64,000 bases of DNA from Escherichia phage humlepung, in sequence record MN850564.1; one strand, given 5' to 3'. Below are positions 20,882-62,444 of the stretch, piece by piece (positions within the stretch are counted from its first letter, which is position 1; every line of letters begins with the position of its first letter). The notes beneath the pieces were generated by a model. That model saw only the letters and a list, made by a program, of their open reading frames with translations. It was not told the DNA's origin and did no database searches. A program made the translations under genes and the position numbers.

Positions 20882-21086
20882 CTTTCTTCTTCCGTTTGCG
20901 TGAAGTGTCAATCAATGAATCTATGTTTGTAGCCCTAACCTTTTCACGTTCATCGTTAAGATAATCATCAAGAGCCTTTTCAATCTGTGAATCATCTTGG
21001 CAGATAACTGTAAAGACTGTAAAGCCATCTGTATCATCAATTATCTTACCATAACCGCTTCTGGGATGTAACTTTTTAAGAGCCAT
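20874..21086 (-). CDS. hypothetical protein
   Basis: 70 aa; ATG 21086; basic C-terminus. Confidence 0.45.
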   Translation of the reverse strand: MALKKLHPRSGYGKIIDDTDGFTVFTVICQDDSQIEKALDDYLNDEREKVRATNIDSLIDTSRKRKKKDE

Positions 21087-21087
21087 A

Positions 21088-21471
21088 TCAAATACCTGTG
21101 CAGCTTCTGTTTTCTAAGAAATACTCAACACCATACATAGCTTTTTGCATCAAATCTTCTTTAAACTGGATACGGTGGTTGAGCATAGCTTGTACATCAA
21201 TATCGTCATGGTGTTTCTCTTTAATATTTGCAGATTGCAGGAAATACTCTGCAAGAACACGATACTGGTAGTCAGTTACCTTATCAGTCATCTCTGTCAA
21301 AGACTCTTCAGAGATTGGTTTAAGTAGCTCACCATTAGCCAGAGCAACACCTTTTACAATCTGGCAAGTATCTTCTGGAACACCTGACAAGTCCACATTT
21401 GGAAGTTCTGTTGCATTGACTGGTAAATTCATTGTCATAACCATTGCAGCAGCTAATAAAATCTTTTTCAT
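21088..21471 (-). CDS. secreted protein with N-terminal signal peptide
   Basis: 127 aa; MKKILLAAAMVMTMNLPVNA signal-like N-terminus; RBS GAGGTC. Confidence 0.5.
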   Translation of the reverse strand: MKKILLAAAMVMTMNLPVNATELPNVDLSGVPEDTCQIVKGVALANGELLKPISEESLTEMTDKVTDYQYRVLAEYFLQSANIKEKHHDDIDVQAMLNHRIQFKEDLMQKAMYGVEYFLENRSCTGI

Positions 21472-21589
21472 AATGACCTCAAAGTTATATTAAATTTTGT
21501 ATTACGTTGAGTATAAAAATAAGCTATAACACCTGACTTGTCAACAGATTTTATAGCTTATTTGGCAGATTTTTTATAAGGCTACTGCC

Positions 21590-21830
21590 ATCCTTCCATA
21601 CTATACCCTACCAAACCGTACCTAACCTCACCCTACCGAACCGAACCGTACCTCATTAAAAGACCCTCTTTAAAGACCTTTTAAAAAGGTAAGTCTCATT
21701 TTAATGTAGCTGAGACTAACTACCCATACCAAACAGCACCGCACTATGCCTTACCCCACCTCACCGAGCCTCGCCCCACATCACTTAAAAACCCTTTTCA
21801 AAGACTCTTAAGTGATGTTGGTGAGTACCC
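21590..21830. repeat. G-poor degenerate tandem repeat (2 units of ~105 bp) in a 560-bp non-coding gap
   Basis: Two units of ACC/CCT-rich sequence each followed by TTAAAA(G/A)ACCCT...AAAGAC; hairpin GTCTCA...TGAGAC between them. Confidence 0.5.
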
Positions 21831-22032
21831 GTTGGTTTATGCTGCTCAGTATACTCACCAAATTTTCTATGTCAACAACTTTTTATAAAAAAGTTCTGAT
21901 AGCTATATGTGTCACGAAACAAAAGATTGTAAACAAGACACCCATTGCAAAAGATGTGTCCAAAAGCTTACTTGCAACGTATGACAATACAAAGACAACC
22001 AGTATAAACAGAATGACTGTACTGAACATAGT

Positions 22033-23133
22033 TTACTCATAATCCCTAATAACTAGCCCGACAGGGAACTGTAAAGAACCCTTACGAGTCATCTTCTGGA
22101 ACTGTACCGTTAAAGGCTTCCCGATAAACTCTTCAGGATGCTCAGCAAGATACTGTTTCTTCTCATGAGTAGTCTTCCATGATACATCTACAAAGACGTT
22201 AGGAAGAGTCTCTACAACGAACTTACCATGACCACGTTTATCAGTCTTTACACCAGTCACTTTAAACTCTTCAGTGTGCATCTTCTTGTGCTTAATCAAG
22301 AAGTATGAACGGTGACCACACTCATAGAAAGATTCTTCAGAGATTGAACGGTACATTGCACCTTCAAACTTAGCTTCAACCCACTTATCATGAGCTTCAT
22401 CAAATTCTTCCCAAGAATTTACACGACGAGACTTAACAGGAACAACTTTACAGCCATCTCTAAAGTCATTCAATGGTGAAGTCTCAATAATATCTCTACG
22501 CTCAGGCCACGTCTTAGTGCTGTCACAGATATCGTACCAGTAGAACTGGAGTAGATGTCGGTCTGGATTGTCAGCATTTTTAATCATAGACACAATATCT
22601 TCTAAGTCCCAACCATGAGCATAAATCTCACCATCAAAGTCTTCGACTTGTGGATGCAATTTAAGCAACAAAAGCAAATCTGGGATTAGTTCTGCTGGGA
22701 CGTTGTAAATAGTATTCTCACGAGAATAAGCCGTGAAGCTAACTAAATCAGCATCTCTTGAGATTCTACAACGTACACCATCAAGTTTTGGTTGAGCATC
22801 AGCAGGGAACTTCAGATACTTTGCATGACTAACCTTTGCAGCATCATGAGCAAGCTGTACACCTACCTTCTCAGTATTCTGTGCAGACTCTTTTGTGTAA
22901 GCATAACCTTTACGGTCAACTTGCTTTTTATACTTAGCAGCAACTTCAAAGAGAGCTTGCTGTTCAGCGTTACGCTCATTCTTTTTACCGATGTTCTTAG
23001 GCTCTGCTGTATACTCTTCAAACATCATCTTGCCATTCTCTTTACCATAGGTTGTAATAACTTTGTCACCTACAGCAACACATGACCAGACGTTGAAGGA
23101 ACCATCTTTATTTTGTTTGTACAGAATTGTCAT
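22033..23133 (-). CDS. ATP-dependent DNA ligase
   Basis: KLDGVRC motif I (KxDG); start set to ATG 23133 with GAGG RBS rather than track start 23169. Confidence 0.75.
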   Translation of the reverse strand: MTILYKQNKDGSFNVWSCVAVGDKVITTYGKENGKMMFEEYTAEPKNIGKKNERNAEQQALFEVAAKYKKQVDRKGYAYTKESAQNTEKVGVQLAHDAAKVSHAKYLKFPADAQPKLDGVRCRISRDADLVSFTAYSRENTIYNVPAELIPDLLLLLKLHPQVEDFDGEIYAHGWDLEDIVSMIKNADNPDRHLLQFYWYDICDSTKTWPERRDIIETSPLNDFRDGCKVVPVKSRRVNSWEEFDEAHDKWVEAKFEGAMYRSISEESFYECGHRSYFLIKHKKMHTEEFKVTGVKTDKRGHGKFVVETLPNVFVDVSWKTTHEKKQYLAEHPEEFIGKPLTVQFQKMTRKGSLQFPVGLVIRDYE

Positions 23134-23326
23134 TTTTAACCTCTGAGTGATACCAAGTATTGCAAGCATTACATGCGTAAAGCTCTAAGTCATTTTTATC
23201 TGGTTTGTGGAAACAGTTTGACCCACAACGACACCGGAATAGCTTACCATCAACACGAAGAATGAATGTTTCAAGCTCACCATCTTCTGTAAGAACTGCG
23301 TTCTTAAATTTATCTTCTACAGTCAT
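23108..23326 (-). CDS. small Cys-rich hypothetical protein
   Basis: 72 aa; CRCGSNCFH...CNACN zinc-ribbon-like. Confidence 0.45.
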   Translation of the reverse strand: MTVEDKFKNAVLTEDGELETFILRVDGKLFRCRCGSNCFHKPDKNDLELYACNACNTWYHSEVKNDNSVQTK

Positions 23327-61778: not shown

Positions 61779-62012
61779 ATGCTTACAACCGTTTATCTTA
61801 TCCTTTCTATTTGTAATGGTCATTCATGTGATTTTAAAGGGCTTGAGGAGTTTACAGGAAGTAAAGAAAATGCTGTTCAGGTCTGTCAGATAGCAAGGCA
61901 AGACTACCCCGCCAGTGATGACATACAATGTTACTTTAAGACAGAAGATGAAGATGGTATCTATTTCGATAGTGTAGACGGTCAATATGAAATAATTATA
62001 GAAAAAGACTAG
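61779..62012 (+). CDS. cassette gene J, small Cys-containing protein
   Basis: 77 aa; RBS AAGAGG. Confidence 0.45.
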   Translation: MLTTVYLILSICNGHSCDFKGLEEFTGSKENAVQVCQIARQDYPASDDIQCYFKTEDEDGIYFDSVDGQYEIIIEKD

Positions 62013-62102
62013 ACAAGCCTGATAAAAATCTGTAAATTACTAATCAACGGGGAGGGAATGACCTTCCCCACTAAACAAAATCCTAAACTGGAGATTCAAA
62101 AA
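62010..62102 (+). promoter_or_regulatory. cassette type 1 (TAGACA-N17-TAAATT, hairpin, leader)
   Basis: Hairpin GGGGAGGGAATGACCTTCCCC at 62049-62069. Confidence 0.6.
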
Positions 62103-62444
62103 ATGGCTTATGTAACCGTAATTACCGATAAAGCTGGCGCATCTTGGTCAACTCAGGTTAGTGATAAGATGTCGCCTATGCAGTGCCTAAAATACTTTGA
62201 ACAGTGGAACAAAGGCGAGGACACAAGCCCCTTTCACGTAATGCAGATTATTCATGTAGACAATGAAGGGAAGAAAACAACTCTGAATAGTGAGTACTAC
62301 GCAAGCCGTTTTGAAACGAGAAGTAAAGCAATGAAGCTCTTACGTGAGGCCGGATATGGTCACATTGCCGCGATAATCTGGGATGACCTTCTAAAAAGTC
62401 AACGTATCAGCTATGTAAAGCCTGAAAAAATATTCATCAGTTAA
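62103..62444 (+). CDS. cassette gene K, hypothetical
   Basis: ATG 62103 (track ORF starts inside the hairpin at 62058); 113 aa. Confidence 0.5.
   Translation: MAYVTVITDKAGASWSTQVSDKMSPMQCLKYFEQWNKGEDTSPFHVMQIIHVDNEGKKTTLNSEYYASRFETRSKAMKLLREAGYGHIAAIIWDDLLKSQRISYVKPEKIFIS

Follow-up and report, generated by a model that had tools for sequence, protein, structure and literature searches.

A two-guide vrRNA array in Escherichia phage humlepung, very probably an orphan of a SUSP1-clade VIPR locus

Viral Interference Programmable Repeat (VIPR) is a phage RNA-guided DNA-silencing system related to CRISPR, which was first described in 2026 in two preprints (bioRxiv 10.64898/2026.04.26.720920 and 10.64898/2026.04.26.720927). 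Its protein, Vipr (~20 kDa), belongs to the RAMP proteins and has been proposed as the ancestral form of those in CRISPR. Its guide RNAs, the vrRNAs, are ~100 nucleotides (nt) long and consist of 9-16 YNNGG repeats and a conserved 3' pseudoknot tail. Cryo-electron microscopy (cryo-EM) showed one Vipr protomer per repeat in a helical filament, in which GGY is flipped into the protein and NN is presented. NN pairs with the double-stranded DNA target, and every third base, usually the codon wobble, is skipped. The outcome is a gapped R-loop/triplex, by which the transcription of competing mobile elements is repressed. The guides of the SUSP1 clade are mostly aimed at a satellite that parasitises the phage (bioRxiv 10.64898/2026.04.26.720920,.720927). 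The vrRNAs of SUSP1 were detected by small-RNA sequencing (bioRxiv 10.64898/2026.04.26.720920), and their co-purification with Vipr and the repression of targets were shown by pull-down and GFP assays (bioRxiv 10.64898/2026.04.26.720920,.720927). Here, we describe an intergenic region of Escherichia phage humlepung (sequence record MN850564.1; the 64,000-nt stretch analysed is called the window below), which is very probably a two-guide vrRNA array of a SUSP1-clade (type II) VIPR locus, orphaned from Vipr. The window holds only the RNA half of VIPR, and this kind of locus is already described.

The type II locus of SUSP1 has the order vrRNA1, vipr, vap1, and vrRNA2-4 (PDB 36pp; bioRxiv 10.64898/2026.04.26.720920,.720927). 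The array in the window occupies the same position, downstream of the ligase gene and upstream of a gene whose 127-aa product has a signal peptide. Its promoter and leader, both hairpins (A and B), the tails, and the terminator have almost the same sequence as in SUSP1 (L020 4286-4480, 5600-6080). The two loci also share three tail types with a pseudoknot, GGY+NN tracts of 11-12 repeats, and, as far as the imperfect matches of the window guides indicate, the class of natural targets, the Felixounavirus satellite islands of E. coli. SUSP1 vrRNA1, as parsed here, has 12 repeats, the number in the cryo-EM preprint. Unlike SUSP1, the window carries two vrRNAs, and vipr and vap1 are both missing from it.

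In this respect the window resembles the vrRNAs carried by satellites, reported in the VIPR preprint. Such a vrRNA consists of a tract and a pseudoknot tail built in the same way. The element that carries it has no vipr gene, and, like those of the window, this vrRNA must depend on Vipr made elsewhere. The carriers differ: a satellite always meets its helper phage, whereas the carrier of the window array is itself a lytic phage of the helper type. One satellite example was parsed here. The satellite island of E. coli 02E060 (L159 4840-4899, minus strand) has its own vrRNA of 12 repeats with the tail GGGUGGAUUGUCGUAGCCACGUUAAAAAUCGAC, and no vipr gene was found in this island.

Orphan CRISPR arrays and phage mini-arrays without cas genes are a more distant parallel. 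They are also guide arrays in which a variable targeting part is joined to a conserved handle. In both systems RAMP-fold proteins bind the guides with periodic base flipping, and arrays can outlast the effector genes. Unlike in CRISPR, the guide information of VIPR is noncontiguous, with NN every 5 nt and no contiguous spacer, and the target is read with a 1-nt skip, with no protospacer-adjacent motif (PAM) and no Cas1/Cas2 acquisition. Type II VIPR represses its targets rather than cleaving them.

The window belongs to a Felixounavirus (FelixO1-like myovirus), and the region is matched by 243 phage records. The array lies in 560 nt between the ligase gene (22033-23169, minus strand) and the signal-peptide protein gene (21088-21471, minus strand), so that an unusually long gap beside the ligase gene, pointed out in an earlier reading of the sequence alone, is present. 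That sequence-only reading took the gap to be non-coding, which holds for most of it; the upstream quarter is occupied by an open reading frame (ORF) for 48 aa. It also described the plus-strand core (21590-21830) as almost devoid of G. The core is G-poor, with 11% G against 21% in the window and 34% C against 18%, but the wording was too strong, as 27 of the 241 nt are G. The GC skew at the core drops to -0.57 and -0.59. Two repeat units exist as described; their spacing is ~127 nt rather than the ~105 nt given for the unit. The motif reported to end each unit, TTAAAARACCCT..AAAGAC, was found at 21656 with 0 mismatches and at 21784 with 2 mismatches, with a chance expectation of 0.02, and the GTCTCA...TGAGAC hairpin was located between both units.

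That reading did not mention that the minus strand repeats strictly every 5 nt, as (GGTNN)n, nor did it give the pentamer code or a guide-RNA function. The spectral power at period 5 reaches 7.84 at 21596 and 3.51 at 21716; nowhere else in the 64 kb is it as high, the mean being 0.70 and the standard deviation 0.43. On the minus strand, each unit (~127 nt) is composed of a perfect 18-19-bp hairpin containing G·U pairs, 11 GGY+NN pentamers, and a tail of 33-34 nt. Two tracts of 11 tandem pentamers fall within the 9-16 YNNGG repeats of vrRNAs, and each is capped by a conserved 3' hairpin and pseudoknot tail. Together with the homology to SUSP1, these tracts and tails are the RNA features that define a vrRNA array.

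The sequence-only reading suggested a structured, G/U-rich non-coding RNA on the minus strand, and the evidence agrees with this suggestion. The region is bracketed by a predicted promoter and a predicted terminator, the hairpins are specific to the minus strand, the tails covary, and homologues in SUSP1 are seen by small-RNA sequencing. The folding energy is -110 kcal/mol for RNA of the minus strand (z = -5.4) and only -68.9 kcal/mol for RNA of the plus strand, in which the G·U-dependent stems are lost. Because the stems contain several G·U pairs, the hairpins form solely in the minus-strand transcript. The pseudoknot was evaluated in an alignment of 13 distinct tails, which includes both tails of the window and one satellite tail. 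In this alignment, 88.8% of cells are paired, and compensatory changes are seen in nine of the 11 pairs. Its covariation score of 0.641 exceeds the 0.265 of shuffles (0 of 500 reach 0.641) and the 0.06-0.18 of slid registers. A covariance-model search against Rfam, which had been proposed as a check, gave no match in 21472-22032 even at E values up to 10; Rfam 15 holds no vrRNA family. Comparison with syntenic regions, the other proposed check, showed that the element is conserved in related phages and is not replaced there by an ordinary short spacer.

The relatives compared were 29 IMG/VR loci found via the ligase protein and three GenBank records. Among them, the promoter, hairpins, and tails are ~95-100% identical. 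Even where two phages are otherwise 90-99% identical, their pentamer tracts cannot be aligned, and the NN positions are hypervariable. The number of units per locus varies from one to five. Over 55 unique tracts, the first three pentamer positions are G in 74% (never C), G in 86%, and T in 84%, and the remaining two are near-random. In the phage collection, the last tail and the terminator were found in 230 records, and promoter P1 and hairpin A in 227. No annotated feature lies under the array scaffold in the ten GenBank records displayed from these matches. A literature search for pentanucleotide or GGU repeats found nothing, and the PhageMaP paper on Bas63 is silent on this intergenic region.

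The partner protein was identified from a scan of IMG/VR for the exact pattern (GGTNN)6GGT, and the following results refer to loci among the matches listed. Some of these matches are plain microsatellites; many others are unrelated viral contigs in which degenerate tracts form arrays. The tracts are mostly 10-15 pentamers long, with up to 18 tracts per array, and run in the same direction as the flanking genes. By clustering of the neighbouring ORFs, one family of ~200-aa proteins was found to adjoin the array in 34 of 45 loci. This family is phrog_4652, whose function is annotated as unknown and for which Pfam gave no match. In many Felixounaviruses, a gene of this family immediately follows the array. 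The product of one of these, garuso_12, matches the PDB chain 36pp_D, "SUSP1 Vipr protein", with E = 2e-128.

The same scan gave several other classes of repeats. In unrelated viral contigs (L130 3232-4394, L052 2216-3406, L041 3330-5318, L058, L042, L137, L145, and others), a phrog_4652 (Vipr-family) gene is immediately followed by a large array of degenerate (GGTNN)n tracts, with lineage-specific separators such as GGCAGTT, AAGGCTAATG, and AAGGAATGGTTTAATGAATTTAATT. These arrays are probably other VIPR types. A repeat with a 15-nt period, (GGTTAGGTTAGGTAA)n, is embedded in open reading stretches that span 800-1000 nt in L044, L060, L110, L111, L118, and L127. Its opposite strand would encode pentapeptide repeats of the TLPNL type, and it looks unrelated to VIPR. 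Pure (GGTCG)n microsatellites were seen in L066, L071, L093, L102, L112, and L122. The motif GGGTCGCCCTTT... is conserved before the repeat in L066 and L071, and L093, L102, and L122 share another upstream flank. These microsatellites are a different, unexplained class of repeats caught by the pattern scan.

The hallmarks of Vipr, an ancestral RAMP protein of ~20 kDa, include the G-loop GxGDWRP. Four members of the family, the Felixounavirus Vipr and three distant ones, gave no tblastn hit to vipr in the 64-kb window (E > 0.09). A weak hit of a distant Vipr at 61917-62378 was rejected, as the 128-aa protein encoded there is unrelated and lacks the G-loop motif. The 146-aa protein encoded downstream of vipr in garuso and SUSP1 is taken, from its position, to be the product of vap1, an accessory gene predicted to encode a DNA-binding protein, and a tblastn search with it gave no hit in the window or in JK55. 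JK55 is a close relative with three vrRNAs, and in its complete 86-kb genome neither vipr nor vap was found by tblastn. The absence of vipr from the part of the humlepung genome outside the window is inferred from JK55 and from the constant locus of vipr in relatives.

An array without vipr is not confined to this phage. The vipr-vap module is present in 19 of 30 sampled array-bearing loci, and the window is among the 11 lacking it. In the phage collection, vipr was found in 118 Ounavirinae records, at one place per record. Subtraction leaves ~110 of ~230 related phage records in which the scaffold of the array is not accompanied by vipr. The comparison of these 118 records with the 230 and 227 scaffold records thus indicates that about half of the arrays are orphans. 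In phages named after Salmonella, the scaffold occurs in 72-75 records and vipr in 17; in those named after Escherichia, the numbers are 114 and 77. From the former counts, vipr-less arrays seem to be predominant in the Felixounaviruses of Salmonella. The arrays without vipr retain the promoter, the tails, the GGY periodicity, and satellite-matching guides. The GGY fraction is 0.72 in vipr-less arrays versus 0.76 in vipr-positive arrays. Among the vrRNAs of vipr-less arrays, 18 of 19 are unique, and some guides are identical between vipr-positive and vipr-less phages.

The satellites that would be targeted were searched for with the phage baseplate-hub gene. Islands with up to 96% nucleotide identity to this gene are present in 474 of 5,426 complete E. 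coli genomes. The islands (~11 kb) encode a tape measure, a baseplate protein, a large serine recombinase, and a helix-turn-helix (HTH) protein, and some encode a methyltransferase. Their insertion sites vary (L155-L159): inside a DUF72 gene near yecD/yecN, between yciI and tonB, and near ymdF. Five satellites were scanned locally under the 1-nt-skip rule. With the guides of relatives as a positive control, at least 80% of the NN letters matched a satellite for 37 of 63 guides from vipr-positive arrays and nine of 18 from vipr-less arrays, compared with four of 79 order-shuffled guides. One guide from a vipr-less array matches a satellite at 22 of 22 positions.

Both guides of the window, named a and b in the order of transcription, find their best matches in satellite genes. 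Guide a matches the serine-recombinase gene at 17 of 20 positions, a score reached by six of 1000 shuffles (P = 0.006); its last NN, AU, is conserved, and 17/20 excludes it while 17/22 includes it. Guide b matches the gene for the HTH-domain protein at 18 of 20 positions, the first eight NN being perfect, and none of 1000 shuffles reaches this score. At both sites the guide reads in phase with the codons, and the base that is skipped is the wobble base. In the satellite of E. coli MRE162 (NZ_CP119400.1), these sites lie at about 2590705-2590736 in the recombinase gene and about 2598375-2598406 in the HTH gene. In the flanking chromosome, only 14 of 20 positions are matched by either guide. In the satellite first examined (L155), the guides of the window match at chance level. 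No self-target was found in the window, where the best matches are 73% and 68%.

The positions of the parts of the array are listed in Table 1.

Table 1. Features of the array and the adjoining promoter in the window
Feature	Position	Strand	Sequence or composition	Basis
Array promoter P1	21848..21875	-	TTGACA-16-nt spacer-TATACT	promoter scan, sigma-70, 11 of 12 consensus positions
Hairpin A, immediately 5' of the first repeat tract	21779..21817	-	CAUCACUUAAGAGUCUUU-GAA-AAGGGUUUUUAAGUGAUG; perfect 18-19-bp stem, G·U-rich	fold
vrRNA-a repeat tract	21726..21778	-	11 pentamers (GGY+NN); NN code GG GA UC GA GG AA AU GC GC UU AU	repeat parsing
vrRNA-a 3' tail, H-type pseudoknot	21693..21725	-	GGGUAG..GUCUCA-GCUACAUUAAAA-UGAGAC	covariation
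Hairpin B, inter-guide hairpin	21650..21690	-	ACCUUUUUAAAAGGUCUUUAAAGAGGGUCUUUUAAUGAGGU	fold
vrRNA-b repeat tract	21598..21649	-	11 pentamers; NN code AC UC UC AG GA UA AC UU AG AU AU	periodicity and repeat parsing
vrRNA-b 3' tail, pseudoknot	21564..21597	-	GGAAGG-AU-GGCAG-UAGCCUUAUAAAAAAU-CUGCC	covariation
Terminator-like hairpin, array end	21513..21563	-	AAAUAAGCUAUAA..UUAUAGCUUAUUU, then U run	fold
Next-gene promoter, inside the terminator hairpin loop	21544..21516	-	TTGACA-17-nt spacer-TATTTT	promoter scan

The P1 sequence is also found upstream of SUSP1 vrRNA1, and the transcript of the array probably starts near 21841. Hairpin A is kept in relatives with compensatory changes in its closing pairs. 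It is annotated as a terminator in one GenBank record; by inference, it is a spacer or a processing/termination element between guides. In vrRNA-a, the triplet is GGY in eight of the 11 pentamers, and the others are UGU, AGU, and UGU. Its guide is identical in the vipr-positive phage garuso (L001), where it is the first guide, and in JK55 (L003). In its tail, GUAG pairs with CUAC of the hairpin loop. This pseudoknot helix is 100% paired with three of four pairs compensatory, and six of seven pairs of the stem are compensatory. The tail matches those of SUSP1 vrRNA2 and vrRNA3, and hairpin B is likewise found upstream of these two vrRNAs. The 3' arm of hairpin B provides the first GGU of tract b. 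In vrRNA-b, the triplet is GGU in 10 of 11 pentamers, and the guide is unique among 80 guides parsed from relatives. AAGG in its tail pairs with CCUU in the loop. The tail is of the type seen in the last vrRNA of an array and is identical to that of SUSP1 vrRNA4. The promoter of the signal-peptide gene lies within the terminator loop, as in SUSP1, so array termination and initiation of the next gene share one 51-nt element.

The ORF in the upstream quarter of the gap (21883-22029, minus strand; 22029..21883 in its reading direction) encodes a very hydrophobic protein of 48 aa, MFSTVILFILVVFVLSYVASKLLDTSFAMGVLFTIFCFVTHIAIRTFL, and overlaps the ligase stop codon by 4 nt. It is found in JK55, ASO1A, and garuso. 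In many relatives it is absent and the array promoter directly follows the ligase gene, and the sequence of SUSP1 differs there. Elsewhere in the window, a weak Rfam match was seen within a coding region (20883-20940, minus strand) to the L2-Alphaproteobacteria ribosomal leader, at 18.1 bits against a gathering score of 37.8 (E = 0.2). It is most likely a chance match.

A course of events can be proposed for the array. Host RNA polymerase would transcribe it early from the minus-strand promoter (21875-21848), and the transcript would yield two RNAs of ~90-100 nt, each with 11 GGY+NN pentamers and a 3' pseudoknot tail. In roughly half of the relatives, the same array encloses the vipr-vap module; here, recombination between copies of the inter-guide hairpin has probably removed it. 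The layout of the window is what would be expected to remain after a deletion between the copies of hairpin B that flank vipr-vap. As Vipr is missing, in a single infection the vrRNAs would be made but would be unable to silence anything. They would act only with Vipr supplied in trans; otherwise, the array would be a recently stranded remnant.

Several observations weigh against an orphan vrRNA array with satellite targets. About 23 kb of the genome of this phage lies outside the window. The promoter, the terminator, and the processing to ~100-nt RNAs are predictions or are taken from SUSP1. Over all 11 NN, guide a matches 17 of 22 positions (77%), which is under the 80% cut-off of the preprint, and guide b is also imperfect against its natural target, at 18 of 22 (82%). 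Exact 1-nt-skip patterns found no perfect target for either guide in IMG/VR. A BLAST search with "perfected" sites found no allele better than the imperfect ones in the 5,426 complete E. coli genomes. Finally, GGY is kept equally in arrays with and without vipr, so a recent remnant and a maintained function are not separated by it.

The most probable of the alternatives is that a vipr-less array is kept because its vrRNAs load onto the Vipr of a co-infecting vipr-positive Felixounavirus, so that satellites are silenced without protein genes of its own. We consider this possible, but less likely than not. The abundance of scaffolds without vipr among the related records, the preservation of their promoter, tails, and GGY, the satellite matches of half of their guides, and the uniqueness of nearly all of their vrRNAs are consistent with it. 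Moreover, the satellites carry vrRNAs without vipr, so VIPR already seems to include cases in which Vipr is used in trans. This explanation needs co-infection by a vipr-positive relative. The host is no source: SUSP1-type vipr DNA was found in none of the 5,426 complete E. coli genomes, where a search for the array scaffold was also empty, so the host cannot supply Vipr. The guides that are identical in vipr-positive and vipr-less phages fit recent recurrent deletions equally well.

We lean towards regarding the vipr-less arrays as remnants or as arrays in conditional use. It is rather unlikely, in our estimate, that they represent a maintained strategy, in which cheap, fast-evolving guides are kept and Vipr is borrowed from co-infecting relatives or the Vipr of a competitor is diverted.

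Diversion alone would make the orphan vrRNAs decoys, an anti-VIPR sponge that soaks up the Vipr of a competing phage. A strong early promoter, as predicted here, and an intact GGY and tail without the cognate protein would suit a sponge. A sponge needs no satellite-matching NN, yet the guides of vipr-less arrays match satellites far above chance, and we regard this explanation as very unlikely.

A function at the DNA level is more improbable still. The sequence-only reading had named a replication element and a packaging site as possibilities, and no supporting evidence was obtained for either. The strand-asymmetric distribution of G and C downstream of a promoter would favour R-loops, and thus an origin primed by an R-loop from the G-rich transcript. 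However, a strict 5-nt period in which GGY is conserved and NN is random is required neither by an origin nor by a packaging site. The G·U-dependent hairpins form only as RNA of one strand, and the pseudoknot covaries. The number of units varies between one and five, the sequence is hypervariable between near-identical phages, and the homologous element of SUSP1 is a demonstrated guide RNA.

The array might instead be a site or a sponge for another multimeric RNA-binding protein, such as a TRAP-like ring, or for tRNA 3'-CCA ends that pair with GGU. TRAP sites in the Bacillus trp leaders have 9-11 (G/U)AG triplets with 2-3-nt spacers, and one repeat is bound per protein subunit. The conserved triplet, the non-conserved 2-nt spacer, and the 11-13 repeats per tract resemble such sites, which have about 11 repeats. 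However, the triplet is GGY and not GAG/UAG, phrog_4652 has no Pfam match to TrpBP, and we know of no TRAP in E. coli. TRAP is a beta-sandwich ring, whereas Vipr forms a RAMP/RRM filament, and the spacers hold the targeting information in VIPR and none in TRAP sites. The co-occurring partner family has a structure solved as Vipr, with one protomer per repeat by cryo-EM. It is hardly conceivable that a protein of this other kind is the partner. Also dropped were a sponge for tRNA 3'-CCA ends or the anti-Shine-Dalgarno sequence, two-tetrad G-quadruplex arrays, a primase recognition site cluster, a variable region of the diversity-generating retroelement (DGR) type, in which the A positions of a (GGTAA)n template would be mutated, Chi-like or RecA-preferred GT-rich DNA, and restriction or BREX site decoys (GGTAAG, GGTCT). 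Like TRAP, the sponge, and the R-loop origin, none of these explains together the conserved GGY with random NN, the covarying tail, and the co-occurring RAMP protein.

An orphan vrRNA array of the SUSP1 clade thus remains the preferred interpretation of the region. The VIPR preprints found their systems via the protein, and the word "orphan" is not used in them (bioRxiv 10.64898/2026.04.26.720920,.720927). Two points appear not to be included there: that vipr-less arrays are common in Felixounaviruses of the helper type, and that their promoter, tails, GGY periodicity, and satellite-matching guides are as well kept as those of vipr-positive arrays.

VIPR is a minimal, PAM-free, programmable DNA-binding system that has been proposed to be older than CRISPR. 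Its arrays are detectable from raw sequence without a protein signature, and surveys centred on the protein would miss those described here. The RNA half of VIPR often travels without the protein half. If the vipr-less arrays are a maintained strategy, phages would share parts of VIPR or steal them from one another, much as the Cas proteins of the host are exploited by orphan CRISPR arrays. If they are functional in trans, the picture of whose Vipr is used in the conflicts between phages and satellites would change. If they are remnants, the repeated scaffold would make VIPR loci prone to self-deletion.

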